Part shown: positions 2,824 to 41,929 of the stretch, in pieces | How the letters are laid out: the number at the start of each line of letters is the position of its first letter | Numbering within the stretch: the stretch's first letter is position 1 | Assembly: GCA_007130885.1 (NCBI GenBank) | Contig: SLRQ01000013.1 | Span: forward strand, 11,004-75,003 | Reading direction: 5' to 3' | Length of the DNA stretch: 64,000 nucleotides | DNA from: Deltaproteobacteria bacterium | GTDB lineage: Bacteria > Myxococcota > Myxococcia > SLRQ01 | The notes under the pieces: generated by a model | Database searches by the model: none | What the model saw: only the letters and a program-made list of their open reading frames with translations | Told to the model about the DNA's origin: nothing | Made by a program: the position numbers and the translations under genes

Positions 2824-3173
2824 AGGCTTTTTTGAATGCGCGGGAGAACCTCCGGTTCGCCTTTTTGCTGCTCGTTATCGCGGGAGGCGCCACCTGCGTT
2901 ACGTCGGCCCTTCGGCCGGCGGCGGCTACCAGGACATACGGCGAGACAATCCTTCCGCCCGACGGCTATGTGGATCGCGTCGAGGGCTTGGTGGCCGTAA
3001 TCGTCACTGACGAGGGAGAGGTCGTCGACTGGCCGGCGGGAAGGCTCCGGGAAGGGGACGTGATACGCAACGGGCGCCGTGATTCGGCTGCTACCGCCGC
3101 TCTCGAGGCAAAGGTCGCCAATATGAGGAAGAGGCTCGAAATCGGTGACTGCTGGAAGGATCTGGATCTGTGA
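2820..3173 (+). CDS. hypothetical small secreted protein (GTG start overlapping radC stop, GTGA)
   Basis: 117-aa ORF with a signal-peptide-like N-terminus (FAFLLLVIAGGATCVTSAL) and coding-like codon bias. It lies convergent to the TPR gene. No recognisable domain. Confidence 0.3.
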   Translation: MKAFLNARENLRFAFLLLVIAGGATCVTSALRPAAATRTYGETILPPDGYVDRVEGLVAVIVTDEGEVVDWPAGRLREGDVIRNGRRDSAATAALEAKVANMRKRLEIGDCWKDLDL

Positions 3174-3208
3174 GAGGCACCGTTGTTGTGCGAAATGATT
3201 GCGAGCGG

Positions 3209-5203
3209 TCAGTCGTCGAGCTCGGCGAGCATTTGCCGCGCGGTGACGGATGCTTCGTCCTTGGAGAGAGCTTGCTCGAGGTAACGTCTCGCATGGTCGG
3301 GGTCGGCGGCGAGCCCCCGCTCCAGGTGAGCTTCGGCAAGCCCGATGAGAATGGACGGAACCTCCGGATCTCTGCGTCGCGCCTGCACGAAGGAGGCGAT
3401 GGCCTCGCTCGTCTTCCCTCTCTCGAGAAGAACTCGTCCCAGCGCGTAATGCGAAAGGGACTCTTCCCGGCCGTGCTCCACCGCGGTATCCGCGTGAAAC
3501 GCCGCGGCGTGGAGATCGCCGAGCCGCAGCAAAGCCAGGGCAAGCCCGCTGTTTGCGGAGGGCTCGTCGGGCCAATGGTCCAGTATGCGCCTGAACCAGG
3601 TGGCCGCACCCTCGGGCCTGTCGACAGACAGCAGCGTCTCTCCCTTGGCCAAGAGAGACTCGGTAAAATACGGGTTCACTTCGGAGGCCTTGGTCAGATG
3701 CTCCAGCGCCGCGTCGTAGTTGCCGGCGCGGGCCTCCAGTCTCGCAAGGTCGGTGAGGGTCCGGTAGCAATCGGCGTCTTGCTCGAGCGCTTTGGCAAAA
3801 TGGCGCTTTGCGAGGGAAGTGTCGCCTTGCAGTGCGTACCATCTCCCAAGGCCCCAGTCGGTCAATGCGCCTCCTTGCTCATCTTCCGCCGAAACCGAGA
3901 GCTCTCGCGGGTGTCGTTGTTGTCCGGTCTTCAGCCGAGCCAGCGCGAGATAAACTTCGGCCTTGGTTTCTCTTCGCCGATCCAGCGGGTCTTCCTTGGC
4001 GCGGGACAGGGCCTCGATAGCCGTGCGGTAGTCGCCGGCATGAAAAGAACTCACGCCCCTAAGGAGGTAATCCTCGGCGCCAGGCCCATCCAGGGTATCA
4101 AGCGCTTGTATCGACTCTTTATGGCGGCCCCACGCGAGGAGAATCTCGGCCTGGACTCGGCGGGCGCCCTGGTGGTTCGCGTCACGCGCGAGAGCGTCGA
4201 GCACTGCCTCTCGCGCGGCTACCAGGTTCATTTCGTCGAGATGGACCCTTGCGAGCTGTACCGCGGGCTCGGCCGTCTCCTCGTGTATCTCAAGGGCTCC
4301 GAGCAGGCGCTCGATGGCGGACGCCGTATCTCCGGTTTCGTGAAGGATCTTGGCCAACGCCAGCTCGGCTCGAAGGCGCTCATGCTCCGAAAGGTCATTC
4401 CACTTGTATCGTTCCAGCTCGCGAATAGGCTTGAGCGACTTCTCCGGCTCGTAGCCGAGATCGAGGCGGGCAAGAGCGGCCTCTACTCGGGCGCGGCCGT
4501 GGCTGGGGTGTCGCTCTCCTACCTCGACGAAGAGACGAAGCGCTTCCTCGGGTCGGTCCAGCTTCTGAAGCCGGCGAGCAAGCACCATCGTGGCTCGGGT
4601 ATAGCCCGGGCGGATTTTCAAAGCCTCCCGGAGGTGCTGCTCCGCCGCCTCGCCGTCTCCATCTTCCGCGAGATGGAGTGCCGCAATATAATGGAGCGTG
4701 CAGCTGCCCGCGCCTGTTTCTATCTTTTCGAGCACCTGACCGGCGATGTCGGAGCGGTCGGAATCGCTCGCTATGATGTAGCTGGCCAGAACAGCTTCAA
4801 GCGGTGGAGTGCCCTCGAAGGCGGGGCTGGAGAGCAACCCTTCTGCTCGCTCGCGGCGCCGGAAGTCAGGATCGATGGAGTCGTGGAGGATGGCCTCTGC
4901 CTTGGCGGACAAGGCAAGAGCCATCACATGGTCCTCTCGCCAATTCAGAACTCGCTTCAAGTCATTGAGTGCGCCTGTGTAACCGGCGTAGGTGTCACGG
5001 CTCATCTGCTCCCGCGCGGCTTCGATCCGGCTCTGGATTGCTTTCTCACGGTCGCCGATTCCCGCCAGCCACGAGACAGCCAGCACCAGGGCGACGGCGG
5101 CCAGGGTGCCGCAGGCTATCCGGTAAACTCCCGGGCGATTGCTCTGGGTGCCTGTGGAAGGCTCGATAATTTCTCGCTTTTCCTGTTGTGTCTCGGCGGG
5201 CAT
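3209..5203 (-). CDS. TPR-repeat protein with N-terminal membrane anchor
   Basis: Multiple TPR-like helical repeats (e.g. ALALLRLGDLHAAAFHADTAVEH, AKGETLLSVDRPEGAATWFRRILDHWPDEP). Hydrophobic segment LAAVALVLAVSWLAGIG near the N-terminus. Start could be 5239 or 5203. Confidence 0.75.
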   Translation of the reverse strand: MPAETQQEKREIIEPSTGTQSNRPGVYRIACGTLAAVALVLAVSWLAGIGDREKAIQSRIEAAREQMSRDTYAGYTGALNDLKRVLNWREDHVMALALSAKAEAILHDSIDPDFRRRERAEGLLSSPAFEGTPPLEAVLASYIIASDSDRSDIAGQVLEKIETGAGSCTLHYIAALHLAEDGDGEAAEQHLREALKIRPGYTRATMVLARRLQKLDRPEEALRLFVEVGERHPSHGRARVEAALARLDLGYEPEKSLKPIRELERYKWNDLSEHERLRAELALAKILHETGDTASAIERLLGALEIHEETAEPAVQLARVHLDEMNLVAAREAVLDALARDANHQGARRVQAEILLAWGRHKESIQALDTLDGPGAEDYLLRGVSSFHAGDYRTAIEALSRAKEDPLDRRRETKAEVYLALARLKTGQQRHPRELSVSAEDEQGGALTDWGLGRWYALQGDTSLAKRHFAKALEQDADCYRTLTDLARLEARAGNYDAALEHLTKASEVNPYFTESLLAKGETLLSVDRPEGAATWFRRILDHWPDEPSANSGLALALLRLGDLHAAAFHADTAVEHGREESLSHYALGRVLLERGKTSEAIASFVQARRRDPEVPSILIGLAEAHLERGLAADPDHARRYLEQALSKDEASVTARQMLAELDD

Positions 5204-5471
5204 ACGGACAACGATCGATCCTGCGCGCCACGAAAGCAAGGCGCTGGGTGGAATGTTCTGCTAAACGTCCGTCCGTGGTCGGTCACGGATCGCGAGCCTT
5301 TGATTTTTTGGGGAGGCCGCCGAGGGTGCTTTGGGTGACGGTTCTAGCCGACTTTCATTTATGGTTTTCCTGAGCGACAGTGCGAACACTTGAATCCCCC
5401 GTTTTCGTTCGGCCCGCGGCGGGGGTATACGAGTAGGCCGGAGCCGGGCTGTAGCCCGGGAGAGGACAGTC

Positions 5472-6137: not shown

Positions 6138-6377
6138 ATGGAGCCTGCCAAGAAAGAGCCTGCTCGGGCCGGCGGAGTCTTTGATGAAGAGGCGAAGTGT
6201 GTCGCCCTCTCGTCCGAGATGGTAGCGGCATTGAGCGCTGTTCTCGTAGAGATGAGCCCGCCGGTGGCTCCGACCCGGCCGCTAAGCTCTGCGGCGGACT
6301 CTCGAGCCGGCTGGAAGCTTGCGGGACGGCTCGAAGGGATTGAGAGCACGCTGGGCACCGTTGCAGGCGAGGGATAA
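6138..6377 (+). CDS. possible small ORF immediately upstream (4-nt gap) of the biotin-carrier gene
   Basis: 79 codons with an ATG start, no clear RBS and a short hydrophobic stretch. Its position resembles the small accessory subunits of biotin-dependent decarboxylase/transcarboxylase complexes. No sequence similarity recognised. Confidence 0.2.
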   Translation: MEPAKKEPARAGGVFDEEAKCVALSSEMVAALSAVLVEMSPPVAPTRPLSSAADSRAGWKLAGRLEGIESTLGTVAGEG

Positions 6378-6380
6378 AGA

Positions 6381-6875
6381 ATGGATGGAAAGTACAATAT
6401 CGTCGTTGACGGCGAGGACGTGGAGGTCATCGTCAGGCGGGCGGGCGATGATGGAGGCGAACGGAGGTTTCTGGTCACCGTGGGAGGCCGTGAGCACGAG
6501 GTGCGGGTGAAGAAAGAAGCAGCGCCGCGGACAACGAACGCAGCGCCCGGCCTGGACCTTGGAAGCGTCTCGATGCCGGTGCCGCGGCGGGAGGAGCGCT
6601 CGGCGCCGAAGCCTTCCGGTCCCTCGGCTCCGGCGAGCGTGGACACCTCGAGCCAGTATGTTGTTACAGCCCCGATGACAGGAAAGATAGTTTCCGCTCA
6701 GGTGGAGGCCGGCCAGCAGGTCAATGAGGGCGATCTGCTCCTGGTGCTAGAGGCCATGAAGATGGAGAACTCCATTTTGGCCACCCAAGCAGGCGTCGTG
6801 CAGAGGGTGGCCGTCAAGGCGGGTGATGGCGTGCGCAAGGGTGACGAGCTGTGCATTCTCGGCCAGGTCGGCTAA
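6381..6875 (+). CDS. biotin carboxyl carrier subunit (transcarboxylase 1.3S-like biotinyl protein)
   Basis: C-terminal biotinyl domain with the EAMKM biotinylation motif ([14 protein letters not shown]). Short N-terminal region plus Ala/Pro-rich linker resembles the Propionibacterium 1.3S subunit architecture. Confidence 0.8.
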
Positions 6876-6961
6876 GACGCGACGTTTCCAACAACCGGCG
6901 GCCCCCGCACTGGCCCACTGCATGCGGTGTGGGCCGCCCATGAGGCGAAGAGGAAAACGAC

Positions 6962-9940
6962 ATGGGTGATAGGCAACGGGTGGGCATTACTGACACCATT
7001 TTCAGGGATGCGCATCAGTCGCTGATTGCGACGAGAATGAGTGTGGACGATATGCTGCCCATAGCGCCGGCTCTGGACGAGGTCGGCTATCACTCGCTCG
7101 AGGTGTGGGGCGGCGCGACCTTCGATGCTTGCATCCGTTTCCTAGACGAGGATCCTTGGGAGCGTCTCCGACGCATCAAGGAGGCCATACCCAACACTCC
7201 TCTGCAGATGCTCATTCGGGGCCAAAACATCGTGGGGTATCGGCATTATCCCGACGATGTCGTGATCGAGTTCGTGCGAGCCGCGCACCGCAACGGTGTG
7301 GGGGTGTTCAGGGTATTCGATGCCTTGAACGACGTGCGAAACATGAAGGTGGCCATGCAGGCCGCAAAGGATGTCGGCGCTCACGTGCAGGGGACCATCT
7401 CGTACACGATAAGCCCTGTTCATACGATCGAGTTATTCGCGGAGACGGCCGCCGAGCTCGGCGAGCTGGGGGCCGACTCGATCTGCATCAAGGACATGTC
7501 CGGCATTCTTACTCCTCATGCCGCGCAAGAGCTGACCAAGGCCATCAAGCGCAAGGTGGGGCTGCCGCTATCGCTTCACAGTCATTCGACCAGCGGCATG
7601 GCCACGGCATCCTACTTCGCGGCTTGCGAGGCGGGAGCCGACCTGCTCGACACCGCTTTGTCTCCTTTTTCGGGTGGCACCTCTCAGCCGCCCACGGAAA
7701 CCATGGTCGCATCTCTGCGGGGGACGCCTTTCGACACCGGCTTGGATTTGGAGCTGCTAGTCGATATCTCCGAGCGATTCAAGGCTGTTCGAGAGAAGTA
7801 CGAGGGTCTCATAAGTCCCCTTTCGGAGCGTGTTTCGACCCAGGTCTTGCTTCACCAGATCCCGGGTGGCATGTACTCCAACCTGCTCTCTCAGCTCGAG
7901 GAGCAGGGCTCGGGCGACAAGATCCACGAGGTGCTGGAGGAGGTCCCGAGGGTGCGGCGTGAACTCGGCTATCCTCCGCTGGTGACTCCCACCAGCCAGA
8001 TCGTGGGCACGCAGGCGGCGTTCAACGTCATGCTCGGTGAACGCTATAAGGCCATCTCCGAAGAGGTACGGATGTACATGCGAGGCCTTTACGGGCGGCC
8101 GCCGGCACCGGTGGATCCGGAGATTCAGAAGCTCGCCATAGGAGACAAGGAGCAGGTCACCGTAAGACCGGCCGATCTTCTGGAACCGGAGATGGAAAAA
8201 GCGCGAGAGGAGATAGGTGAGCTGGCCGAATGCGACGAGGATGTTTTGACCTACATTCTCTTTCCGCAAGTCGCGCGCAAGTTCCTGGAGCGCCGGAAGT
8301 CTGGTGATTTGAAGCCGCCGATGCCGCCGCCAAAGAAGGAAATCAAGAGCGAGCCGGAGCCGGACGACGAGGCAGCCGAGGAATACGCGAACGGTCATGA
8401 GGCCGCCATGCGCCGCCTAGCCAAGATGGAGTCGGAGGCCTTGCTCGGTGGGGGTCAAAAGGCAATCGACAAGCAGCATGCCGCCGGCAAGCTTACGGCG
8501 AGGGAGAGAGTGGAGCTGCTTCTCGACCCAGGCTCTCTCGTTGAGATAGACAGGTTCAGTCGCCATCGCTGTCATGACTTCGGGATGGAGAAGAAGAGGG
8601 TTCTGGGCGACGGTGTGCTGACCGGCCATGGCACCATTGGGGGGCGGCAGGTCTTCGTTTTCGCGCATGACTTCACGGCGTTCGGGGGCGCGCTCGGAGA
8701 GGTGTTCGCCCGCAAGGTATGCAAGCTGATGGACCTTGCAATGAAGGTCGGAGCGCCGGTGATCGGGTTGAACGACAGCGGAGGGGCCCGAATTCAGGAG
8801 GGCGTGGCCAGCCTCGCCGGCTACGGGGACATTTTCCATCGCAATGTCACGGCTTCCGGTGTGATTCCGCAGATATCCGCTATCGCCGGCCCATGTGCCG
8901 GGGGAGCGGTCTACTCTCCGGCCATGACGGATTTCATCATCATGGTCGAGTCGACGAGCCACATGTTCATCACCGGACCCAACGTCATCAAGGCGGCCAT
9001 CGGTGAGGAGGTGACCTTCGAGGAGCTGGGCGGAGCGGTTACCCACAACAGCGTCAGCGGAGTAGCCCACTTCGTTACCAAGACAGAGCGAGACGCCATC
9101 ACCTTGATGAGATACCTGCTCTCGTTCCTGCCGCTGAACAACATGGAGGATCCGCCGAGGGAGGCGCCCCGGGATGGCTTACTCGAGTCCGGTGAGAGTC
9201 TTCTCGAGCTGCTGCCCGAGGATTCAAACCAGCCATACGACATGCTGGAGATCATTCGGCGAGTCGTCGACGGTGGCGAGATCCTCGAGGTCTCCAGGCT
9301 ATACGCTCCGAACATCGTCGTAGGATTCGCTCGGCTGGATGGGCATACCGTCGGGGTAGTGGCCAATCAGCCGGCGCATTTAGCGGGCTGCCTGGACATC
9401 GACTCCTCGCGTAAGGCCTCGCGTTTCGTGCGTTTCTGCGACGCCTTCAACATCCCGCTGGTTACCTTTGTCGACGTACCCGGCTTCCTGCCCGGCACCG
9501 ACCAGGAGCATGGCGGCATCATAACGCACGGTTCGAAACTTCTCTACGCGTTCTGCGAGGCCACCGTGCCCAAGATTACCGTCATCACCCGAAAGGCTTA
9601 TGGAGGGGCTTACGACGTAATGTGCTCCAAGCATTCCGGTGGTGACGTCAATCTTGCTTGGCCCAACGCCGAGCTGGCGGTCATGGGCGCCGGCGGGGCC
9701 ATAAGCATCATTGCTCGCAAACAGCTCAAGGCGGCGAAGGATCCCGAGGCGAAGCACGCGGAGCTGTCGCAAGAGTACAAGCAGAAGTTCTCCAACCCCT
9801 ACATCGCGGCGGACCTGGGCTACATAGATGATGTGATCCATCCGAACGAGACGAGGAACAATCTCATTAGGGCGCTGGAGATGCTCATGTCCAAACGCGA
9901 GCAGCGGCCGAGAAGAAAGCACGGCAACATACCGCTGTAG
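6962..9940 (+). CDS. fused carboxyltransferase: N-terminal 5S-type (pyruvate/oxaloacetate) domain + C-terminal 12S-type (methylmalonyl-CoA/propionyl-CoA) domain
   Basis: Residues ~1-470 match the HMGL-like 5S/OadA/PycB fold ([14 protein letters not shown]..., [12 protein letters not shown] metal site). Residues ~480-992 match the PccB/12S fold ([32 protein letters not shown]...GGARIQEG...). A single uninterrupted 992-codon frame. RBS GAGGAAAA upstream. Confidence 0.85.
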
Positions 9941-10014
9941 AAGCCGATATCAGGCATAGCACACCTAAAGCCGGCTCGGTGACATCAATACCGGGCCTTG
10001 ACGGGAGGGTGATC

Positions 10015-11709
10015 ATGGCACAGGACAAGCCGGATAAGGCCGCCGTCTCCGAGATAGCCGCCGAGCAAGCTCGTTGGCGCAAGGAGGTCTGGGGCAAGGC
10101 CCGCGAGAAGCACGGTGAGCGCAAGGAACTTTTCGAGACCCACTCAAAGCTCGCCCTGGAGCCCATCTGCACACCCTCGGACTGGCCGCCGGAGCAGTAC
10201 CTGGAGAAGGCCGGATTCCCTGGTGAGTACCCGTTTACGCGGGGGGTGCAGCCGACATCGTATAGAGGAAGACTTTGGACGATGCGGCAGTACGCCGGAT
10301 TCGGGAGCGCCGAGGAGTCCAACGCTCGTTACCGCTACCTGCTCTCACAGGGTACCACCGGGCTTTCGGTCGCATTCGACCTCCCCACCCAGATGGGCCG
10401 GGACTCCGACCATGCTGTCGCCGCGGGCGAGGTCGGCAGGGTGGGCGTGGCCGTGGATACCATGGAAGACATGGCGACCTTGATGGACCGCATACCCCTC
10501 GACGAGGTGTCCACGTCCATGACCATAAACTCCACGGCGGCTGTGCTTCTGGCTCTGTACCAGGCCAGAGGAGAGGCTACGGGAGTGGCGCCGGAAAGCC
10601 TTCGCGGCACCATACAAAACGACGTGCTCAAGGAGTACATCGCTCGCGGCACCTACATTTACCCACCGGGGCCGGCGCTTCGGATAATAACCGACATCTT
10701 TGCCTACGCTACCGAGGTGCTTCCAAGGTTCAATACGATATCAATCAGCGGATACCACATTCGCGAAGCAGGCAGCACGGCGGTTCAAGAGGTGGCATTC
10801 ACCTTGGCGGATGGGATTTCATACGTTCAGGCGGCCCTGGATGCCGGACTGGACATCGACAAGTTCGCCGGTCGCCTTTCCTTCTTCTTCAACGTGCACA
10901 ACGACTTCATTGAAGAGATAGCCAAGTTCAGGGCGGCACGGCGCCTATGGGCGCGCATCATGAAGGAGCGATTCGGCGCCAAGAATCCCCGATCCATGAT
11001 GCTGCGCTTCCATACCCAGACCGCGGGCTGCACACTGACGGCCCAGCAGCCGGAGGTGAACATCGTTCGTGTGGGGCTCCAGGCCATGGCGGCCGTCCTC
11101 GGAGGTACTCAGTCGCTGCACACGAACAGCATGGACGAGGCTATGGCGCTGCCGACCGAGAAGGCGGTGCGCATCGCTCTGCGCACCCAGCAGGTCATAG
11201 CCCATGAGTCCGGAGTGGCCGATGTGGTGGACCCGTTCGGGGGTGCGCCGCTACTCGAGGACCTCACCGATCGCATCGAGGCCGAGGCCGAGTCCTACAT
11301 AAGCCGAATAGACGAGATGGGCGGCATGGTCGAAGCCATCGCCCAGGGCTTTCCTCAAAAGGAGATCCAAGACGCCTCATACCGCTACCAGCGCGAGTGT
11401 GAGTCCGGTGAGAGGCAGGTAATCGGCGTTACCGGGTTCAAAGTGGATGAAGACGAGGAACCAATCGAGCTTCTGCGGGTGGACCCGGAGATCGAGGAAC
11501 GTCAGCGAGCCCGGGTAGCGGCTTTTCGCGCCGGCCGAAACGAAGCCGGGGTGTCGGCCGGCCTAAAGGCGATCGAGAAGGCGGCGAGGGGGACCGATAA
11601 CCTGATGCCCTTCATAGTGGAGGCCATGAAAGCCGGCTGCACGCTGGGCGAAGTCAGTGACGCCATGCGCGACGTGTTCGGCGAGCACAAGGAAGTCCTG
11701 GTGGTCTAG
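10015..11709 (+). CDS. methylmalonyl-CoA mutase large subunit, substrate-binding TIM-barrel domain only (no B12-binding domain)
   Basis: Strong MCM-family similarity throughout ([55 protein letters not shown]...). The ~565-aa length corresponds to the catalytic barrel without the C-terminal cobalamin domain. ATG 10015 has GGGAGGG 6 nt upstream. The track GTG 9979 is the alternative. Confidence 0.85.
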
Positions 11710-15698: not shown

Positions 15699-16058
15699 CG
15701 GGGGACCATGGACATTGCTTTTTGAAATGGCCGGAACCATCGAAGTCGGCGGGAGACCACAATAATGGAAGTCAAGAACGCGTATCCACCGGACAATGCA
15801 AAAGCCGGCATTTATTTTTGACGGTAGAAATATTTTGAACGGCGATGAGATGAGAAGAATAGGTTTTTGCGTCTATCAGGTGGGGAAGGGATCCGCGGAC
15901 GCGGCGATAGGTCTAGAGCCTTGGAGCGGGTGATGTAGAGACGTGCTCGAGGCAAAGCGCGGCTGCAAGTTGGTGATTCCGCGGAGAAGATGGTTCGCGG
16001 ACGGCCTTGGCTTCTAAGACGTTGCGAAGGTGGTGTCAGGCGGCGTAATCTACGGATT

Positions 16059-19000
16059 ATGAACAGTTGTGGCTCCAAGCTCGTTGGTTGGACGGTGCTC
16101 ATGGCCGCATGGGCGGTTTCGGCATGCGGCACGTTGGAGCTGACGGGCATCGATCTTCGCATTCATTCCGAAGAGGCGGGGGAGATGGAGTGGATGGAAG
16201 TCGCCGTTTATGATTCCGGTGGAGAGATGATGCACTCTCCCGAGCGGCGTCCGGAGGGGGGGCGCCCCGTGAAGAGCACTGAAACGGTCTTGATTCTGTT
16301 GCCCGGAGAGCTTGATGGAGAGCTGGTTCTAGTCCACGTCATGGGCTTTTACGGGCAGCATGTGGTGGCTGAAGGCGCCGTCGAGGTGGTGGTTGAAGCG
16401 GGAGTGCTTCAAGAGGCGGAGGTAGAGCTGAACTTGCTCGGCTACTGCGAGACCGATGAGGATTGCGCCAAAGGCGAAGTTTGCTTGCCGGAGGGATGGT
16501 GTGCCTCCGGCTGCATGGTGGAGGACGTTTTTGCGGAGCCTGGGGAGCCAAGCCCCGACAACGAATGCTTGATTTGTAAGCCGGATGTCTCGACGCGCGA
16601 ATGGGTCCCCTCGGATGCCGGTACTTCGTGCGGTGACGGAAAGGTCTGCGATGGGGCGGGCAAGTGCGTCATGGATGATCCGGGGCGCGTGGCGGTGCTG
16701 GTCGAGGTGGGTGGGCTCGGCGGGGGGAAGGTGCACTCGGAGCCGGGAGTGATCGACTGCGGTAGTGTTTGTAGTGCCTTGGTCGAGATAGGCAGCACCC
16801 TGAGCTTGACTGCTGTTCCCGACGAGGAAAGCATGTTCTCGGAATGGCGGGGGGATGCCTGCGTGGAAAGTGAGTCGACGTGCACCTTGACCGTCGAGGA
16901 ACAGGTCGTGGTCACCGCCCGGTTCGATGTGAAGGTTCACGAGCTGGAGGTGAGCTTGGCGGGCACGGGTAGCGGCAATGTGGTCTCCACGGACGGGGTC
17001 ATTGACTGCGGTGGCGGCGACTGCAGCGCCCTGTATGAGCACGGCGAGACGGTGACTCTCGTAAAATCCGTACAACCGGGCAGCGAGTTTGTGGGATGGG
17101 AAGGGGCTTGCGAAGGGAGTGAAGATACGTGCGAGCTTTCCATCACGGAGGATACGCAAGTCATAGCCGAGTTCGATTTGCACCGGCACGAGCTCACAGT
17201 AGATGTTTTTGGAGGTGGGGAAGGGCACGTCCAGTCGGACGACGGCGCGATTGACTGCCACGCCGCCGGCGGGTCGTGCCGGGCCACGTATGGGCACGGT
17301 GATGAGGTGGTGCTTACGCGTTCGGTCGCGGAAGGCAGCGTTTTTGCCGGTTGGGGAGAGGCCTGTGACTCTTCCTCGGAGACGTGCAAGCTTACGATGA
17401 CGGGGGCGTTGGAGGTGACGGCGGAGATCGTAATGGAGGTGTTCGAGCTTGCGGTGACGGTTGTGGGAACCGGCTCGGGCACCGTGGAATCATCGGATGG
17501 AGCTATTCTTTGTGGAGGTGGGGACTCTGATTGCGTGGCCGAGTATGAGTTCGGGCAGGAGGTGTCCTTGACTAGAGAGAGTGGCTCGGGAAGTCGCTTC
17601 GCCGGTTGGGGCGGGGCGTGCGCGGGGTCGGATCGAAGCTGTGACTTCGTAATGAATGATGATCTAGTCGTGTTTGCGACCTTCGAGCTTCGAACTTATG
17701 AGCTCGACGTGAGCTGGACCGGCGATGGTGACGGTACGGTAAGGTCCGCGGATGGGGCAATCGAATGCGGGGTGGAAGGCTCTGATTGCTCCGCTATTTA
17801 CAGCCACGGTCAAACAGTGGTTCTTACCCCCGAGTCTGTTTCGAGCAGCCACTTCGAGGGATGGGGCGGAAGCTGCCAGGGGGACGCTTCGACCTGTGAG
17901 CTGACGATGACGGCTAATCGGAGTGCGAGTGCGCGATTCCAGCTCAACTCTTACACGTTATCAGTGACGGTGACAGGGAGCGGGGAGGGGACTGTAACCT
18001 CCACCGGAGGCACAATAGAGTGTGGTTCCGGGGGAACGAAATGCGACGCCGCGTATTTGCATGGGCAGATGGTGAACCTGACCGCCACCTGGGGAACCTA
18101 CAGCGAGCTTACGGCGTGGGGGGGGGCGTGCGCTCATGCGGAAGAATCTTCGTGCCTCCTGGAGGTGACCGGTACTACCGAGGTGGTGGCGGAGATCAAC
18201 TTGATAACCCATGAGATCCAGGTCGATACGCTTGGTAACGGCGCCGGAACTATCACGACTGCGGACCAGGACATCGATTGCGGCGATGGAAAAGAGAGCT
18301 GTGAGGCGAGCTATGAGCATGGCTCCATGGTTACGCTGCACGCCGAGGCCAGCGAAGGTAGCACGTTCGTGGGATGGAGCGGCGACTGCGCTCATGCCGG
18401 TATGGACGAAGAATGCGCGCTCGAAGTCACCGAGAGTAGAGATGCCGCGGCTGAGTTCACGCTCAACTCATACGTGTTGACGGTCGAGACGAGGGGGGAC
18501 GGCGAGGGCACGGTCTCTTCAACGCCAGAAGGCATCGACTGCGGGAACAAGTGCGAGGCCACTTACTTATATGGCCAAGTGGTTTCTCTGCAGCAGAGTT
18601 ACAGTGGCCATAACGAGTTCATCGGATGGGGAGGGGACTGCTCGGGCGACGATGATACCTGCGAGCTGCTCATTTCAGGAGATCATCTAGTGACTGCTCG
18701 GTTCGAGCCTCGAAGATATATGCTTTCGGTCAGCACCGTCGGCAACGGAGAGGGAACCGTCATGACGGATGATGGAGTGATCGATTGCGGGCACGAAAGT
18801 TGGAGCTGCTCGGTGCTCATCACATACGGAGAGACGGTGGTGCTGAACCAGTCCGCCGAGCCGAGCAGCTACTTTTCGAGCTGGTACGGCGACTGCGCAT
18901 CGGCGGGCGTTTCCTGTTTGGTACAGATGGAAGGACACAGGAGCGTCGATGCCGATTTCTCCTTGAAAAGCTATCCGCTGGAGGTCAGCAAGGAAGGGAG

Positions 19001-19691
19001 TGGTGGGGGTACGGTTATCTCCGAGCCCGGTGATATTCTGTGTGGTCTTTCATGCGAGGATGAGTTCGATCACTATACCGAGGTGACTCTGTCGGCGACG
19101 CCGGATGAGCACAGTGCATTCGTCGGGTGGTCAGGAGCCGGCTGCAGTGGTACCGGCTCGTGCATTGTTCCAATGACACAAGCTCGTAGTGTCATAGCAA
19201 GATTCGGGCGAAAGGGCAGAGTTCTTAGGGAGTACTGGCTGGGCATCTCCGGAACGGCGGTTTCGGACCTGACCAATCATTCGAATTTCCCCGACAACCC
19301 AAGCGGAGCTACTTTCCCGACGATTTTCGAGGGTCCCACCAACTGGACAAACCACTATGGCACGCGAATGCGAGGATATATTCATGCGCCATATACCGGA
19401 GATTATGTTTTCTGGATAGCGAGCGACGACAACAGCGAGCTTTGGCTCAGCACGGACCCCAACCCGGCCAACAAGGTGTTGATCGCTTACGTGCCTGTCT
19501 GGACCAATCCCAGGGAATGGAACAAGTTTTCTTCCCAGCAGTCGCAGCCCATTCACCTAAGGGCCGGTCAAACATATTACATCGAGGCATTGCATAAGGA
19601 ACACGAGGGCGGGGACAATATCGCTGTTGCTTGGCAGCCGCCCGGTGAAAGCCGGCAAGTCATTCCCGGCGCCTTCTTGTCACAATATTAA
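16059..19691 (+). CDS. giant surface lipoprotein: 13 tandem InlB-type B-repeat-like domains + C-terminal PA14 domain
   Basis: Lipobox signal MNSCGSKLVGWTVLMAAWAVSACG. About 13 copies of a ~78-aa unit with the pattern G.G.G.V.S..G.I.CG....C...Y.HG..V.L.A.P..GS.F.GW.G.C.G....C.L.M.....V.A.F. Terminal GYIHAPYTGDYVFWIASDDNSELWL...YYIEALHKEHEGGDNIAVAWQ is PA14-like. AT-richer promoter-like region 15700-16050. Confidence 0.8.
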   Translation: MNSCGSKLVGWTVLMAAWAVSACGTLELTGIDLRIHSEEAGEMEWMEVAVYDSGGEMMHSPERRPEGGRPVKSTETVLILLPGELDGELVLVHVMGFYGQHVVAEGAVEVVVEAGVLQEAEVELNLLGYCETDEDCAKGEVCLPEGWCASGCMVEDVFAEPGEPSPDNECLICKPDVSTREWVPSDAGTSCGDGKVCDGAGKCVMDDPGRVAVLVEVGGLGGGKVHSEPGVIDCGSVCSALVEIGSTLSLTAVPDEESMFSEWRGDACVESESTCTLTVEEQVVVTARFDVKVHELEVSLAGTGSGNVVSTDGVIDCGGGDCSALYEHGETVTLVKSVQPGSEFVGWEGACEGSEDTCELSITEDTQVIAEFDLHRHELTVDVFGGGEGHVQSDDGAIDCHAAGGSCRATYGHGDEVVLTRSVAEGSVFAGWGEACDSSSETCKLTMTGALEVTAEIVMEVFELAVTVVGTGSGTVESSDGAILCGGGDSDCVAEYEFGQEVSLTRESGSGSRFAGWGGACAGSDRSCDFVMNDDLVVFATFELRTYELDVSWTGDGDGTVRSADGAIECGVEGSDCSAIYSHGQTVVLTPESVSSSHFEGWGGSCQGDASTCELTMTANRSASARFQLNSYTLSVTVTGSGEGTVTSTGGTIECGSGGTKCDAAYLHGQMVNLTATWGTYSELTAWGGACAHAEESSCLLEVTGTTEVVAEINLITHEIQVDTLGNGAGTITTADQDIDCGDGKESCEASYEHGSMVTLHAEASEGSTFVGWSGDCAHAGMDEECALEVTESRDAAAEFTLNSYVLTVETRGDGEGTVSSTPEGIDCGNKCEATYLYGQVVSLQQSYSGHNEFIGWGGDCSGDDDTCELLISGDHLVTARFEPRRYMLSVSTVGNGEGTVMTDDGVIDCGHESWSCSVLITYGETVVLNQSAEPSSYFSSWYGDCASAGVSCLVQMEGHRSVDADFSLKSYPLEVSKEGSGGGTVISEPGDILCGLSCEDEFDHYTEVTLSATPDEHSAFVGWSGAGCSGTGSCIVPMTQARSVIARFGRKGRVLREYWLGISGTAVSDLTNHSNFPDNPSGATFPTIFEGPTNWTNHYGTRMRGYIHAPYTGDYVFWIASDDNSELWLSTDPNPANKVLIAYVPVWTNPREWNKFSSQQSQPIHLRAGQTYYIEALHKEHEGGDNIAVAWQPPGESRQVIPGAFLSQY
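16670..19200 (+). repeat. intragenic tandem array of ~13 units of ~235-240 bp encoding the B-repeat domains
   Basis: Periodicity visible in the protein translation. Units are divergent (about 30-50% aa identity). Confidence 0.7.
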
Positions 19692-19826
19692 TCCGCACAG
19701 TATGGTGCCTCGAGTTCATAGGTCATCCCAGCATACAGGAAGCTACTCGCAAGAGAGCATGCCGGCTCAGCACTTTCTCTTCGTTTCATCAATTAAAAAA
19801 GCAGTAATTGTACCGGAGGCATCAAG

Positions 19827-21434
19827 ATGAAGCCAGTAGGATACAGAATCATGTTTGTTTCTAGGGCGTGCCTTGCCTTGCTGATAGCCTATTCTTTGTC
19901 TTGTGGCGACGTGTCAGAAGTGTCGGATGAGAACGGTGATACCGTTGCAATGCCTGCCTTTTCGCCCTCATCTGGAACATACAATCAGCCAATTGCGGTA
20001 GAGATTACTACTGACACAGATGGAGCAAGAATCTATTACACTACAAATGGCTCGAACCCTTCGGAAGACAATGGAGACGAGTACGACGAAGCTATTGTTC
20101 TAGAAGGTGACGGACTAGAGGTGACCCTGAGAGCAATTGCAGTCAAGGAAGGCCTGCTTGACAGCGAGATAGCAGAGGCGACCTATATTTTCGAATATGA
20201 TACGGAGAATGGCGGAGTCGCTACGCCGGTTTTCACTCCAGCTCCGGGAATCTATGATGGGTCCATAGATGTGGAGATAAGCACTTCTACATCTGATGCG
20301 ATAATCCATTACACCATGGACGGTTCGAAACCATCCAAGACGACAGGGGAGGTGTATGATGGGCCAATCGAGCTCGAGGGTGATGGACTGGATGTGACGA
20401 TACGGGCGCTTGGAGTCAAGGAGGGCATGCTCGAGAGTGAGGTCGCCGAGGCAAGTTATGCAATCGAGTACGAGACAGTCGCCACGCCGGTTTTTGACCC
20501 GGAGCCAGGAGTATATGATGAGCCAATCAGCGTGGATATCAGCACGGCTACCGGAGGCGCGACGATATACTACACCATGGATGGTTCAGAGCCCTCCGAA
20601 GCCGAGGGTACGGTGTTCCTAGAGCCGATCATTCTAGACGGCGACATTTCAGAGGTGACGATTAGATCTCTAGCGATCAAGGAAGGAATGCGCGACAGCG
20701 AGATAGCATCGGCGACCTATGAGATCGATTACCATGATGAGTTCCAATTCCTGAAAGGCGTGTGGGCAACGAAAACCGTAGCCGTTGCGGACTCGGTTAC
20801 CATGGGCGTTAGCAGTCAACCCGTAACAACAGCTTACTCGCTCGTTCATATGAGCGTGGAGAAAGAGATTGCGGAGGCGCGTGCCGTTACCTGTCATATT
20901 GACGTTGATACGGACACGAATAGGGTTAAAATTTTCATCAAGGACAGCTATATCGATGCCTTGGATGAAATCGAGTATTTATATTCGATATCAGGAGATG
21001 AAGAAGGTTACACTCTGAGCATCGAGGACCATGTGCTGTTGACCGCCGTGGATCTTCAAGATCCATTGAACGATGAAATGCCTGATGATAAAAATGATCC
21101 GCGATTTTTCAATCAAGACGGCAGGCGGGGTCCGGGGATTACAATTGATGCCTGGGTAGACCCTGTTGTTGGGCAGGCCAGCGACGAGGAAATGAGCGTC
21201 GCCACGCGTCAATTTACGACGCAGCTCTTGGAGGTCAAAGGGGACGACCTCATAGTCGGGAGCTATGAGTGGGACGAGGACAGGATCGTTCTAGAGACAA
21301 CACATAGCATGTTGGACTGGGAGCAGCAGGTCACTCCCAGGCACGAGGATAGCTATACCAAGCTCGTGAAGGTAGATGATTCTTATGACTGTGAGAAGAT
21401 CCTGGCCGAGATAGCTGGACTCTTCGCCGACTAG
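19827..21434 (+). CDS. lipoprotein with 4 chitobiase/beta-hexosaminidase C-terminal-type (CHB_HEX_C-like) repeats + unassigned C-terminal domain
   Basis: Lipobox LIAYSLSCGD. Repeats of the form FSPSSGTYNQPIAVEITTDTDGARIYYTTNGSNPSE...EYDEAIVLEGDGLEVTLRAIAVKEGLLDSEIAEATY. RBS GGAGG upstream. Confidence 0.8.
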   Translation: MKPVGYRIMFVSRACLALLIAYSLSCGDVSEVSDENGDTVAMPAFSPSSGTYNQPIAVEITTDTDGARIYYTTNGSNPSEDNGDEYDEAIVLEGDGLEVTLRAIAVKEGLLDSEIAEATYIFEYDTENGGVATPVFTPAPGIYDGSIDVEISTSTSDAIIHYTMDGSKPSKTTGEVYDGPIELEGDGLDVTIRALGVKEGMLESEVAEASYAIEYETVATPVFDPEPGVYDEPISVDISTATGGATIYYTMDGSEPSEAEGTVFLEPIILDGDISEVTIRSLAIKEGMRDSEIASATYEIDYHDEFQFLKGVWATKTVAVADSVTMGVSSQPVTTAYSLVHMSVEKEIAEARAVTCHIDVDTDTNRVKIFIKDSYIDALDEIEYLYSISGDEEGYTLSIEDHVLLTAVDLQDPLNDEMPDDKNDPRFFNQDGRRGPGITIDAWVDPVVGQASDEEMSVATRQFTTQLLEVKGDDLIVGSYEWDEDRIVLETTHSMLDWEQQVTPRHEDSYTKLVKVDDSYDCEKILAEIAGLFAD

Positions 21435-21501
21435 ACCACATAAGTAAGATAGGGATACGAGCTACTTGGGATCGAATATTTGGCTCGTTAGAAGATTTTG
21501 C

Positions 21502-21945
21502 ATGAGAAAGGCAGCGGAGCTGAAAGAATTGCGGTTCAGACCGCATCACTTCCTCTGTACCCTGTGCCATCGGGGCAAAGGGTACTCACCGTCGTTCATC
21601 AGGAGCTACGCAAAGTTGATGAAGCGGCTGGGAAAGCCCGACACGGGTGACGAGGAGCCGATCCAGGTAGTCAGCGGGCCGGACATGATCTGCGATTTTT
21701 GCCCCAAGCTGCACGGCGAGGCGTGCGAGACGCAGGATGTGGTGGAAGCCTTGGACCGCGCGCACGCGGGAATACTCGGCCTCGAGGAGGGGCAGGTAAT
21801 CACCTGGGGGGAGGCCAAGCGACTTCTTGCAGAGCATATGACGCCGCGGGCTTTCGATGAGGCCTGCAAACCTTGTGGGTGGAAGCCGCGAGGGCTTTGC
21901 GAGAAGGTCCTTCAAGAGCTGAGGGAAGAACGAAAGGCAAGCTGA
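21502..21945 (+). CDS. DUF1284-family protein (RPHHxLC motif)
   Basis: ELRFRPHHFLCTLCHRGKGY and further Cys residues (CDFCP...C) match the DUF1284 signature as I recall it. Start chosen at ATG 21502. The track's 21466 is a TTG. Confidence 0.5.
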   Translation: MRKAAELKELRFRPHHFLCTLCHRGKGYSPSFIRSYAKLMKRLGKPDTGDEEPIQVVSGPDMICDFCPKLHGEACETQDVVEALDRAHAGILGLEEGQVITWGEAKRLLAEHMTPRAFDEACKPCGWKPRGLCEKVLQELREERKAS

Positions 21946-22006
21946 CGAGTCTCTATAGTCGGATTACCTTTCGTTCACCGAGCGGGACACCCTCGATTTC
22001 GATGGT

Positions 22007-22483
22007 TTATGTTTCAAACCAGAAACGAAAGCCGAAGCCGGATTGCAGCCCCACGTCTGGAATGTCGATTCCTCCGTCGGAGATAAATGCCAGTCGCGGG
22101 GCAATCTCCAGGAAGAGCTCCAGCCATTCAGCGGGAAATGCGTTCAAACCGATAGGCACCCGGCCTCCAAGGTCCAGGCGGTCGGGCAGAGACAGGTATA
22201 GGCCTGGACCTACATACACGTTTACGAAGCTGAAGAGGTTCTCGCGTATGAGAATCCAGTCGGCGGTCATGCCGAACTGAAACTCTTCCCGAGTAAGTCT
22301 CGCTCCGACCCCGAAGGTGATAGGCAGCTCCGGAGTCTTGACGCTGAGCATGGCGTCCGAGCCCGGAAGTCCGCCAAGGGGGCTCACCTCGAGGGAAAGC
22401 CCAACGCCCCACTCCTGCCCAAGCGCGGGTGTTGCGCTCGATAGCGCGGCTAGCAGACAAAAAATATAGAAACGACGCAGCAT
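22007..22483 (-). CDS. small outer-membrane beta-barrel protein (OmpW/OmpA-barrel-like)
   Basis: Signal peptide MLRRFYIFCLLAALSSATPALG. Alternating amphipathic strands. Ends in ...GFGFRFWFET with a terminal aromatic typical of OMP beta-barrels. Confidence 0.55.
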   Translation of the reverse strand: MLRRFYIFCLLAALSSATPALGQEWGVGLSLEVSPLGGLPGSDAMLSVKTPELPITFGVGARLTREEFQFGMTADWILIRENLFSFVNVYVGPGLYLSLPDRLDLGGRVPIGLNAFPAEWLELFLEIAPRLAFISDGGIDIPDVGLQSGFGFRFWFET

Positions 22484-22840
22484 TTCCACTCCACAAGGAA
22501 AACGGGATTCAGCTCCATCATACCGCAAGACCGGTATGCCGGCGAACAAAGCGTGGAGCGATCGCTTGGGGAACAATCTGAAGGCGGTTATCAGTGATAC
22601 GGTTCGGCTAGATGTGCCCCCCAAAAAGGAACTCGTACCGGGACTAGTTGGCGCACGCCGCCTCTACTCGCTCCGGCCTCCACTCGCCTGGGAACTGTTC
22701 GGCGGCGGATAGCCCTAGCCTCTCACCATCCAAGGGAATTCGAGCCGACCCGGTTTCTAGATAGGGGGTCCGTCAGGGCCTTGTCATATTGATGCTGAAC
22801 TGCTTTATTCGCAAAGCTAACCTTTCAAGGGGTGACGGAT

Positions 22841-25800
22841 ATGAAGAGGCGAAACCGAGGCTCTTGGCTTATTTCCTATTTGGGCGTTGCGGCGGCATTT
22901 CTCCTGGCAGCCGCGTGCGGAGAAAAAGACCCGGCCGATGAGCAGGTGGCCTCGCCGGTCTTCTCTCCTCCGGCGGGGACCTACGAGGAGCCCATCGATG
23001 TGGAGATCAGCACGGGGACCGAAGGGGCCACGATCTTCTACACCATGGACGGTTCAGAGCCGTCCGCGACGAATGGACAGGCGTACGACGGTCCCATCGC
23101 GCTGGCGGGGGACGGCCTGGAGGTAACCATAAAGGCTTTGGCGTTCAAGGAGGACATGCTCGATAGCGAGGTGGTCGAAGCGAGCTATACCCTCGAGTAC
23201 CCGGTGGAAGAAGAGAAAGTGGCCACGCCGAGCTTCTCTCCGCCGGCGGGCACGTACAATGAGCCCATAAGTGTGGAGATCAGCACCGAGACCCAGGGGG
23301 CCGCCATCTTCTACACGATCGATGGCTCCGAGCCGTCGGCTGACTCGGGAGAGGAGTACGACAGCCCGGTCGACATCAGTGACGGCCTGGAGCTGACCAT
23401 ACGGGCTCTGGCGGTCAAGGAGGGAATGCTCGACAGCGACGTCGCCGAGGCCGCCTATGCGGTCGAGATAGAGCTCGAGCAGGTGGCCGCGCCCGTCTTC
23501 TCTCCACCGCCGGGGACTTACCATGAAGATATGACCGTGGAGATAAGCACCGCCACAACTGGAGCATCGATCTATTACACGATGGACGGCTCCGACCCGA
23601 CGGCGGCCGATGGAGAGGAGTACGATAGCCCCATCGAGCTGGAGGGCGACGGGCTGGCGGTCACCATCAAGGCCATCGCGGTGAAGGATGAAATGGCGGA
23701 CAGCGAGGTCGCCGAAGCTGATTACGTCATCGAGTACCTGGAGACGGTCGAGAAGCCTACCTTCTCGCCGGCCGCCGGCACCTACTATGAGCCCATCGAC
23801 GTCGAGATCAGCACGGCCACCGATGGAGCGTCCATATACTACACCACCGACGGATCGGTCCCCTCGGCGGATGGTGGAGAGGAGTACGACGGCCCGATAA
23901 CGCTGGAGCAAAACGGTCTGGAACTGACCATAAAGGCAATAGCCGTGAAAGACGGCATGTATGACAGCGACATTGCCGAAGCGGTCTACCTCGTCGACTT
24001 CGAGACGGTCGCGGCGCCCGTCTTCACGCCGGCTCCCGGTACGTATCACGATCCGGTGGACGTCGAGATCACAACGGCCACCGATGGAGCCGTCATCTAC
24101 TTCACCACCGACGGCTCGGAGCCGTCTGTCGAAAACGGTACCGAGTACGTCGGTCCCATCACGCTCGACGAGTACGGGCTGCAGGTGACCATAAAGGCCC
24201 TGGCCTCGAAGGACGGCATGTACGACAGCAACGTGGTCCAGGGGGTCTATCTCGTCGACCATGAGACGGTCGCCGCGCCCACCTTCACGCCGGGCTCGGG
24301 GACATATTTCGAGCCGATCAACGTGGAGATCGAGACGGCCACCGAAGGAGCGACGATATATTTCACCTTGGACGACTCCGAGCCCTCGGCGGACAACGGA
24401 GACGAGTACGTCGATGCCATAGCGCTCGAGGACGACGGACTGGAGGTGACCATAAAGGCTATTGCGCTGAACCATGGGATGCACGACAGCGATGTGGTCT
24501 CGGCTGGGTACATTATGAACTTCACGCCCGATACGCCGTCAGTGGTCTATCCCACGCAGGGCTCCACGGTAAGAAGCCCGCTGGACGTATGGGGGACCGG
24601 CGTTGCGGGCAACACCATCGAAGCGACTTTGTTGCACGACGATGACGAGATCTCGCAAGAGACCGTCGATATCGAGCCGGACGGCTCGTTCGAGCTGACT
24701 CTCCACTACACCGACGTCGAGGGCGGGGCCGACCTTCGGCTGAACGTCGTGCAGATTGCCGGCGATTATGTCTCGGAGCCGGCCGTCATCAATCTGGTGG
24801 AGGACTCCATGCGGTTTTTGGCGGGCACCATCGAGCAGACCGGCGGCCCAAACGAGGGCGATGTGTACATCTGGCTCTACGAGGCCGAGGAGACAGGGAG
24901 CACGGTCGTCGAGGATCTTTTGGAGCCGATGAACACTTTCGCGATCGTAGGCCCGGAGCATGACTGGCTCGATGAGACTTCCTTTGCATTTAGCGTGACA
25001 GAGGGTCACTACGTCCTTCGGGTTTTCAGGGACGCGGGAGGTGGTGACGGTGGGACGCCCGACGGTTTGCCCAGTATTGGAGATGACGCCCAAAGCGTCG
25101 TTCTGGCGGTATCGGTCAGCGGGGAAGACGTTACCGATCTCGACCTAGAGCTCGTGGATACGAGTCATGCCCATAGGTACGCGGCACTGGAGGTTTTCTC
25201 CTCGAACGAGACCAGTGAGCCCGAACCTCCTTATTATGAGGACAATGGCGACTGGCTGCGGGGCGAAGGGCTTTGCCGCGGCTATCACATGCGGCTGGAG
25301 ACTCATCTCTGGCATGGAGACGAAAGCTTGTCGGAGCCGAGGGTGCGCCGTCCGGACGGATCCATGGTCACCATGCTCGATGACGGAGCCTGCGGTCCGG
25401 AGGTCGCCGACAATACAAGCAGCAGCTATAACCACTGGCTGGACGATGGTTTTTACTCCTTCGGGTGGCAGGATCCCGACGATAGCGATGCCGGCGTATA
25501 CACGTTCTTCTACGAAAACAGCGCCGAGGGCTTCTTTCACATCGAGGAGCGGGAGCTTGGCGAGGTAGTGAAGCTCACGCGGTCGATCCCTCTCACCTCT
25601 CCATCCGGCGCCGAGCCGAACACGGACTTGCAGCCTGAGCTTTCGTGGGAATCGCTTGGCGGCGATGTGAGCTACCATGTGTGCCTGCAAAAGAGCCACC
25701 AGTGGGACTGGAGTATCTGCGAGAGCACCGACGAGGCGTTCATTCAACTGCCCTTCGAAGATGATCTCGATGACGTTCAGGCCTATTGCGCCGATGTCAG

Positions 25801-26614: not shown

Positions 26615-26701
26615 CCTAATCGCGGAGCAGAAACGCAACACGGTCTCGGGCGGTACTCTTTCGCGGTCATATGACGGTGAAGGATACCTCCTATCTTTGG
26701 T

Positions 26702-26731
26702 AGACTAGCTTTCACTTGCGAGACTAGCTTT
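26702..26731 (+). promoter_or_regulatory. 11-bp direct repeat AGACTAGCTTT x2 (19-bp register) about 15 nt upstream of the 26746 start codon
   Basis: Exact direct repeat read from the sequence. A regulatory function is inferred from its position only. Confidence 0.2.
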
Positions 26732-26745
26732 TCCGGAGGGCTGGA

Positions 26746-40221: not shown

Positions 40222-40238
40222 GTCCTCCGCCGTTGCGT

Positions 40239-41894: not shown

Positions 41895-41929
41895 GTTTGT
41901 GCCTCCTGGACCTTGAAGTGCCACCTGCA

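Follow-up and report, generated by a model that had tools for sequence, protein, structure and literature searches.

A fused 5S-12S carboxyltransferase gene, probably part of a methylmalonyl-CoA:pyruvate transcarboxylase, in a Myxococcota bin from soda-lake sediment

The locus described here raises the question of whether the two carboxyltransferases of a biotin-dependent transcarboxylase, known as 5S and 12S, can be encoded as one bacterial polypeptide, and of what enzyme such a polypeptide would form. It lies in a 64-kb stretch of contig SLRQ01000013.1 (hereafter the window, meaning the whole stretch of DNA analysed, to which all coordinates without a locus label refer), where positions 6962-9940 of the forward strand form, in the window's list of open reading frames (ORFs), a single uninterrupted ORF of 992 amino acids starting with ATG. 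Transcarboxylase is the textbook case of carboxyl transfer by a swinging biotin and the ATP-saving step of the propionate (Wood-Werkman or methylmalonyl-CoA) pathway; the classical enzyme combines a 12S hexamer with six 5S dimers and twelve 1.3S chains, and is known in a half-loaded form as well, which has three 5S dimers. The window matches contig SKUP01000191.1 of assembly GCA_007129935.1, "Myxococcia bacterium CSSed162cmB_109R1", which according to the supplement of its source paper is a 3.4 Mb bin of 60% GC, 88% complete, from Cock Soda Lake sediment.

A first-pass annotation of the window had described the ORF as a 5S-like N-terminal half joined to a 12S-like C-terminal half, and both Pfam and Protein Data Bank (PDB) matches agree with that description. 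In Pfam, the protein contains HMGL-like at residues 7-271 (E 5e-21), PYC_OADA at 295-455 (E 6e-59) and Carboxyl_trans at 504-990 (E 5e-196). The N-terminal half matched the structures of PycB (5ks8, E 1e-166), OadA (2nx9, E 3e-160) and transcarboxylase 5S (1rqb, E 2e-145), and these matches, together with the PYC_OADA domain, rule out the 3-hydroxy-3-methylglutaryl-CoA lyase type of enzyme that had been named as the alternative for this half. For the C-terminal half the closest PDB entries were the propionyl-CoA carboxylase (PCC) beta subunits 1vrg (E 2e-212) and 1xnv (PccB, E 1e-208), with transcarboxylase 12S (1on3) at E 7e-178; no chain or entry in the PDB copy searched covered both carboxyltransferase halves. 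An AlphaFold2 model built on 62 aligned sequences showed two confident domains (mean predicted local distance difference test score, pLDDT, 81.6; predicted template modelling score, pTM, 0.54), with the N-terminal half mostly at pLDDT 85-97 and residues 453-476 below 50. The charged Pro/Lys/Glu-rich stretch previously quoted as the linker corresponds to residues 449-474 (nucleotides 8306-8383); it is indeed in frame and stop-free, and it overlaps this low-pLDDT segment.

In the N-terminal half, R15-D16, K177 (within KDM) and H206-x-H208 fall, in the alignments, on the RD, KDM and HxH motifs of 5S, OadA and PycB, which we take to contain the metal ligands (Asp and His-x-His) and the carbamylated Lys of 5S-type enzymes, residues whose identities in 5S were reportedly established by Hall and colleagues in 2004. 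In the C-terminal half, the oxyanion-hole glycines are represented by G647-G648, aligned with PccB G182-G183, and by G881-G882-A883, aligned with PccB G418-G419-A420. Additionally, D885 aligns with PccB D422, a residue said by Diacovich and colleagues in 2004 to favour propionyl-CoA over acetyl-CoA, and the window protein shares this Asp with five of the other six fused genes described below, including the partial gene of locus L089.

The fusion is genuine and not an artefact. Five other full-length fused orthologues (P0002-P0006, 985-1013 amino acids), from NCBI, ENA, JGI and Logan assemblies of other samples, are 68-79% identical to the window protein, the full-length fused proteins being 68-82% identical among themselves. 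In a Myxococcota bin (L089, GCA_048619895.1) the contig end truncates a seventh fused gene, which a single tblastn segment follows from query residue 240 to 992 at 77% identity without a stop. Assemblies with the fused gene also include GCA_007128675.1 and GCA_024278215.1. Sought in related genomes, the same fusion was thus found six further times, and because these independent orthologues keep it, a spurious stop loss or frameshift between the domains, a concern raised at the outset, is not borne out. In six fused proteins the variable linker segment is 22-46 residues long, consists to 65-92% of P/E/K/D/A/S and is unconserved in sequence, while the flanking domains are highly conserved and keep their catalytic motifs; conserved domains around variable linkers point to selection for keeping the halves fused. 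Rough neighbour-joining trees recover the fused proteins as monophyletic for each half, and a single clade in both trees suggests one fusion event, maintained since. The fused gene also shows 0 mismatches across one NCBI and two ENA assemblies, which possibly derive from the same reads and therefore count for little as independent support.

As had been annotated, a separate gene for a 1.3S-like biotin carrier lies upstream of the fused ORF. Within its motif EAMKME, K127 (nucleotides 6759-6761) is the predicted biotin-accepting Lys, and two short beta-strand motifs lie within its residues 5-45, ahead of a Pro/Ala-rich tether. Its stretch from residue 4 to 156 can be aligned with the C-terminal 140 residues of PycB 5ks8 (470-610), which come after the carboxyltransferase domain, so that the carrier resembles a PycB/OadA-type tail that has become detached. 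It also matches 1.3S (1dcz/1o78, E about 6e-8), the subunit that holds 12S and 5S together, and has a similar N-terminus. Orthologous carriers are found upstream of the fused gene in locus L087 and in the operons of two further fused loci, L084 and L085. In L084 the carrier (3460-3933) is split into a 32-residue ORF with the N-terminal strand motifs and a 107-residue ORF with the tether and biotinyl domain, which is either an assembly frameshift or a genuinely split gene.

Ahead of the carrier we found a 79-residue ORF (6138-6377) that is absent from the first-pass annotation. Counterparts precede the carrier gene in L084 (3181-3378) and L085 (3289-3525), and all three share the motif AA[IL]xAVxxE[MI]S...WK[LM]AGRxE. 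Members of this family, linked by three rounds of local hidden Markov model search over the 12,389 small ORFs of the fetched loci together with position, are placed between 12S and 5S at more than 20 further loci, including those of Desulfobulbus, Desulfosarcina, Desulfonema and Marinifilum, the first independent matches having E-values of 5e-8 to 1e-5. The ORF has no Pfam match and gives only sub-threshold matches in NCBIfam (MmdD C-terminus, E 0.037; MmdE, E 0.27); as read from its sequence, its N-terminus is charged, unlike the hydrophobic membrane anchor of OadG/MmdD. A "conserved hypothetical" gene is present in the Geobacter transcarboxylase operon (PMC2996986), and a fourth small coding sequence in that of Propionibacterium freudenreichii (PMC2909200). 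We consider, with moderate confidence, that the 79-residue protein is probably an assembly subunit of the complex.

Downstream of the fused gene, the last gene of the cluster encodes the catalytic subunit of methylmalonyl-CoA mutase (TIGR00641, 786 bits against a cut-off of 304); its called start is at 10015, within a longest ORF that begins at 9979, and the convergent gpsA gene, ending at 11710, bounds the cluster. The fused gene is followed by the mutase in both the window and L089, and in these Myxococcota versions the mutase is the only pathway gene adjoining. In L084 and L085 the order is small ORF, carrier, sucC, sucD, sdh/frdCDAB, epimerase, fused gene, birA and bioY, the epimerase call being a Glyoxalase-family match of the methylmalonyl-CoA epimerase type, and in L084 mutase and B12-binding genes lie nearby; this context is a full methylmalonyl-CoA pathway plus biotin supply. 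L087 has the carrier upstream of the fused gene and no mutase gene. The first-pass statement that no ATP-grasp biotin carboxylase is nearby holds among the large ORFs scanned in the window, and neither a biotin carboxylase nor an OadB/MmdB-type membrane subunit was found within about 10 kb on each side of the gene (about 23 kb) in L084 and L085. An OAD_beta-type or other decarboxylase membrane subunit was likewise found near the fused gene in none of the three contexts (window, L084 and L085). The sole ATP-grasp protein of the window, an ATPgrasp_ST enzyme unrelated to biotin carboxylase, is encoded at 52366-55887 (+) in a group with a 7TM_transglut-fused transglutaminase-like protein and a second transglutaminase-like protein.

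The methylmalonyl-CoA-pathway context, together with the lack of a nearby biotin carboxylase or decarboxylase membrane subunit, makes a transcarboxylase the best-supported reading of these genes. We estimate a probability of roughly three in four that the cluster at 6138-11709 (Table 1) encodes a soluble, ATP-independent methylmalonyl-CoA:pyruvate transcarboxylase (EC 2.1.3.1 type) with its carboxyltransferases in one chain. The earlier preference for a transcarboxylase over a carboxylase, which like ours is read from sequence, is strengthened by the downstream mutase and by the pathway operons of L084 and L085. In the proposed mechanism, biotin on K127 of the free 164-residue carrier would swing between two active sites, a C-terminal 12S-like site exchanging carboxyl groups with (S)-methylmalonyl-CoA/propionyl-CoA and an N-terminal 5S-like metal site exchanging them with oxaloacetate/pyruvate, so that the two half-reactions would be coupled without free CO2 or ATP. 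The reaction would feed the methylmalonyl-CoA pathway, the mutase gene of which adjoins the fused gene; as the reaction is reversible, both propionate formation and propionate oxidation are possible, and the sequence gives no direction.

Several observations weigh against the transcarboxylase reading. The N-terminal half scores below the cut-off of the NCBIfam 5S equivalog PRK12330 (575.3 bits against 827), and its best-named relatives are archaeal PycB/OadA proteins (64-66% identical), whose partner is a biotin carboxylase or a membrane pump. The C-terminal half is below the cut-off of TIGR01117 mmdA (802.2 bits against 998.8), which is a model of the decarboxylase subunit (MmdA subfamily) and not of 12S. 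NCBIfam models cannot separate 5S from PycB and OadA, or 12S from PccB and MmdA, since the same two half-reactions are shared by enzymes with differing partner subunits. One fused protein (P0003, locus L086) has Val at the position of D885 (YGGAYVVMCSKHS), which could reflect an altered acyl-CoA preference or a sequencing error. The window is also without the epimerase, B12-binding subunit, sucCD, sdh/frd, birA and bioY genes of its relatives; the bin is about 88% complete, of which 64 kb were covered, and a biotin carboxylase encoded elsewhere could charge the carrier. As regards geometry, the AlphaFold2 model, with its pTM of 0.54, does not fix the orientation of the two halves.

Alternatively, the fused protein might be the double carboxyltransferase module of an ATP-dependent carboxylase (a bifunctional pyruvate carboxylase and PCC, acting on pyruvate and/or propionyl-CoA) whose biotin carboxylase is encoded elsewhere and charges the carrier. 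Such an enzyme would fit the PycB-type affinity of the N-terminal half, which passes PRK09282, the NCBIfam domain model for "pyruvate carboxylase subunit B" (774.6 bits against a cut-off of 402), as well as the proximity of the C-terminal half to PCC beta subunits in the PDB, the free-standing carrier and the incompleteness of the bin. We nevertheless regard it as unlikely, as no biotin carboxylase was found in the scanned window or in the regions around the L084 and L085 genes, as placing donor and acceptor sites on one chain has an obvious rationale only for transfer between them, and as the operon context is that of the methylmalonyl-CoA pathway, of which transcarboxylase is the standard ATP-saving step (PMC2996986, PMC8892533).

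A second possibility is an oxaloacetate:acetyl-CoA transcarboxylase making malonyl-CoA, a role assigned to the fused transcarboxylases of Entamoeba and Giardia (PMC8136499, PMC7985675), and one with which the absence of the Asp in P0003 would be compatible. For the window enzyme this role is very unlikely, given the retention of D885 there and in most of its fused relatives, the 64-67% identity of the C-terminal half to PccB/MmdA-type enzymes, and the linkage of the gene to methylmalonyl-CoA mutase and epimerase genes. Highly improbable, too, is that the halves are soluble alpha subunits of Na+-translocating oxaloacetate and methylmalonyl-CoA decarboxylases, with the small ORF as a gamma/delta/epsilon-like subunit: TIGR01108 oadA (713 bits) and TIGR01117 mmdA (802 bits) are among the best NCBIfam matches, and the small ORF weakly matches MmdD and MmdE, but both scores are under their cut-offs (757 bits for oadA), no OAD_beta-type membrane subunit is near the gene in any of the three contexts, and the charged N-terminus of the small ORF does not provide an OadG/MmdD-type anchor. 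Finally, it is scarcely credible that the join is a lost stop, frameshift or chimera, or that the 12S half is mostly produced separately by internal initiation (at the ATG of 8408 or of 8426, behind a GAGG). The three identical assemblies may share reads, a GAGG stands 5 nucleotides upstream of the ATG at 8408 and adjoining 5S and 12S genes elsewhere are parted by one stop and a short spacer. Against this, the frame persists across varied linkers in seven fused genes that differ in sample, assembler and lineage, the join falls in a non-conserved region, where assembly chimeras are unlikely, and the GAG/GAA codons of an acidic linker yield Shine-Dalgarno-like strings by chance.

If the product is a transcarboxylase, its single chain implies one 5S per 12S, presumably as an obligate 1:1 ratio in place of the 12 5S per 6 12S of the classical enzyme. 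The assembly would then probably consist of a 12S-type hexameric core with six tethered 5S domains (three dimers), in which the 12S part would form the usual hexamer of two stacked trimers and the 5S domains would pair across the layers or between particles, the tether of about 24 residues being long enough for either; the 79-residue protein and the N-terminal segment of the carrier may act as assembly elements. We put forward only tentatively, as a possible but doubtful arrangement, a (5S-12S)6 particle of obligate 1:1 composition with three 5S dimers formed between chains of its two 12S trimer layers or, giving higher-order assemblies, between particles, accompanied by free carriers and a small fourth subunit.

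Compared with the P. freudenreichii transcarboxylase (1on3, 1rqb and 1dcz), the window protein has the same two carboxyltransferase folds with conserved catalytic residues. Both systems have a separate small carrier with an N-terminal assembly-type segment, a small additional coding sequence (PMC2909200) and a methylmalonyl-CoA-pathway context, and the P. freudenreichii enzyme is without a biotin carboxylase, none being near the window gene either. They differ in that 5S and 12S are separate in P. freudenreichii and joined by a tether of about 24 residues in the window, separate subunits being found in none of the seven fused genes, in the gene order (small ORF, carrier and 5S-12S in the window), and in that the window halves are more similar to PycB/OadA and PccB than to the Propionibacterium subunits. 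PycB (5ks8) and OadA (2nx9), the closest to the N-terminal half in both structure and sequence, carry their biotin domain on the same chain and have a biotin carboxylase or Na+ pump as partner, neither of which is near the fused gene.

Fused (methyl)malonyl-CoA:pyruvate transcarboxylases occur in Giardia, retortamonads, Entamoeba and Mastigamoeba (PMC7985675, PMC8136499). Like these, the window enzyme has both carboxyltransferases in one chain and no biotin carboxylase domain; the protist enzymes are eukaryotic and proposed makers of malonyl-CoA, whereas the window enzyme is bacterial. The protist chain presumably runs from a 12S-like through a 5S-like to a C-terminal carrier domain, while in the window 5S precedes 12S, the carrier has its own gene and the 992-residue protein contains no Biotin_lipoyl domain. 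No protist fused protein was among the close homologues found in the protein collection, which suggests that the window fusion probably arose independently. Jordan and colleagues are said to have described a fused protist transcarboxylase in 2003 and to have remarked that biotin-enzyme domains often fuse and split.

The same components as in the window are encoded by separate-gene operons in Geobacter bemidjiensis (Gbem_0334-0337), Desulfobulbus, Desulfosarcina, Desulfonema, Bathyarchaeia and Thermoplasmata, which comprise 12S, a small conserved ORF, 5S and a biotin domain and whose products are 45-69% identical to the window halves (PMC2996986). In many of these operons 5S carries its own C-terminal biotin domain (about 650-700 amino acids), unlike in the window. 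None of the 80 most similar loci among one-genome-per-species GTDB contigs is fused: 55 have both genes, 48 with 12S before 5S and 7 with the reverse order, and the remaining 25 have 12S only.

Close packing of the two genes was seen in both orders. In loci L001-L005 and L041 (Chlorobiaceae, Planctomycetota, "delta proteobacterium" and Terracidiphilus bins) 5S is followed by 12S in the same frame, for example at L001 1485-4562, with a single stop (TAA, TGA or TAG) and then 3-16 codons of spacer leading up to the 12S ATG, and one point mutation would yield a comparable fusion; the shared frame in these loci was probably helped by tblastn ranking, which favours in-frame loci. Stop-codon read-through or recoding was considered for these loci and rejected, all three stop codons being used and the 12S ATG following within those few codons. 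In Thermoplasmata bins (L079, L053, L055, L058, L059, L061, L064 and L076) the aligned 12S and 5S regions lie 0-27 nucleotides apart; in L079 a single in-frame stop separates the end of 12S from the beginning of 5S, and in the others 5S is in a different frame. This packing suggests tight translational coupling and that fusions of the opposite order could arise easily.

In the protein collection, only six clusters span the whole query. The clade-signature pattern GGAYxVMCSKHS returned five loci from JGI metagenome contigs and was in a fused gene only in the already known P0006 contig. A HMMER search of 1.84 billion cluster representatives gave no fused protein among the best 150, and not even a representative of the query's own family; fused proteins are apparently filed under single-domain representatives, so that this null says nothing about rarity. 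A 367-residue junction query against an index of 5.8 billion proteins returned only single-domain 12S proteins and missed the identical P0001, which shows retrieval by shared words to be lossy, and the seven fused genes are accordingly a lower bound. In L089, where an open frame reaching in from the contig edge covers the last part of the 5S domain and the linker, the public call at 782-2314 (510 amino acids, "acyl-CoA carboxylase subunit beta") starts at an internal codon and is thus a miscalled stand-alone 12S. A search with SdhA to place the lineage of L084 was uninformative, its named matches being 55-63% identical and from several phyla. No report of a prokaryotic 5S-12S chain was found in the literature searched. 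The fused gene is a rare architectural variant of a well-understood enzyme, and not a new kind of system.

Table 1. Features of the fused-gene cluster, with coordinates in the window.
Feature	Position	Strand	Description
Small ORF, candidate MmdE/OadG-C-terminal-like assembly subunit	6138..6377	+	79 aa; stop 3 nt before carrier ATG
Biotin carboxyl carrier protein, 1.3S-like	6381..6875	+	164 aa; Biotin_lipoyl 95-160, E 3e-18
5S/OadA/PycB-type half of fused protein	6962..8317	+	aa 1-452; TIM barrel and PYC_OADA domain; pyruvate/oxaloacetate carboxyltransferase
Interdomain linker of fused protein	8318..8389	+	aa 453-476; Pro/Lys/Glu/Asp-rich; predicted disorder
12S/PccB/MmdA-type half of fused protein	8390..9940	+	aa 477-992 plus stop; acyl-CoA (propionyl-/methylmalonyl-CoA) carboxyltransferase
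Methylmalonyl-CoA mutase, catalytic (N-terminal) subunit, no B12-binding domain	10015..11709	+	MM_CoA_mutase, E 3e-222

Elsewhere in the window, four very large predicted surface or secreted proteins (535-1260 amino acids) with repeated Flg_new_2, CHB_HEX_C_1, Fn3_assoc and PA14 domains are encoded in a row at 15990-29172 (+), where GC skew is strongly positive (up to 0.27); it is also strongly positive at 58-62 kb, the location of a 1607-residue Laminin_G_3/Big_1 protein. At 29403-30680 (+) lies the gene for a 425-residue protein with a VKOR (vitamin K epoxide reductase) membrane domain and a DsbA-like thioredoxin domain, and at 40239-43951 (-) are genes for two adjoining paralogous DUF4140/DUF4139 proteins of 594 and 673 amino acids, next to a pyruvate kinase gene (38812-40341, -). 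The 722-residue ORF at 3170-5338 (+), which has no family match and is antisense to a real TPR-repeat gene (3209-5239, -), is a typical spurious long ORF of DNA with 60-64% GC, and a 515-residue ORF at 1276-2823 overextends a 235-residue RadC gene. Rfam and tRNA scans of the window gave no matches, and a promoter and terminator scan performed no better than on shuffled sequence.

The fusion leaves the understanding of transcarboxylase chemistry unchanged, domain fusion being common among biotin enzymes, and the recurrent small fourth ORF of transcarboxylase operons deserves attention. To our knowledge, solved transcarboxylase structures are of separate subunits only, and a single-chain 5S-12S enzyme would be a convenient target for structural and mechanistic work. 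Were the (5S-12S)6 particle to prove correct, it would be a naturally simplified holoenzyme of fixed stoichiometry, which could allow a complete transcarboxylase structure and could show how the carrier commutes between the two sites. The single-chain enzyme may also serve as a compact part for engineering propionate or three-carbon pathways, and the fused gene as a clear marker by which the methylmalonyl-CoA pathway could be annotated in uncultured anaerobic Myxococcota of soda-lake sediment.

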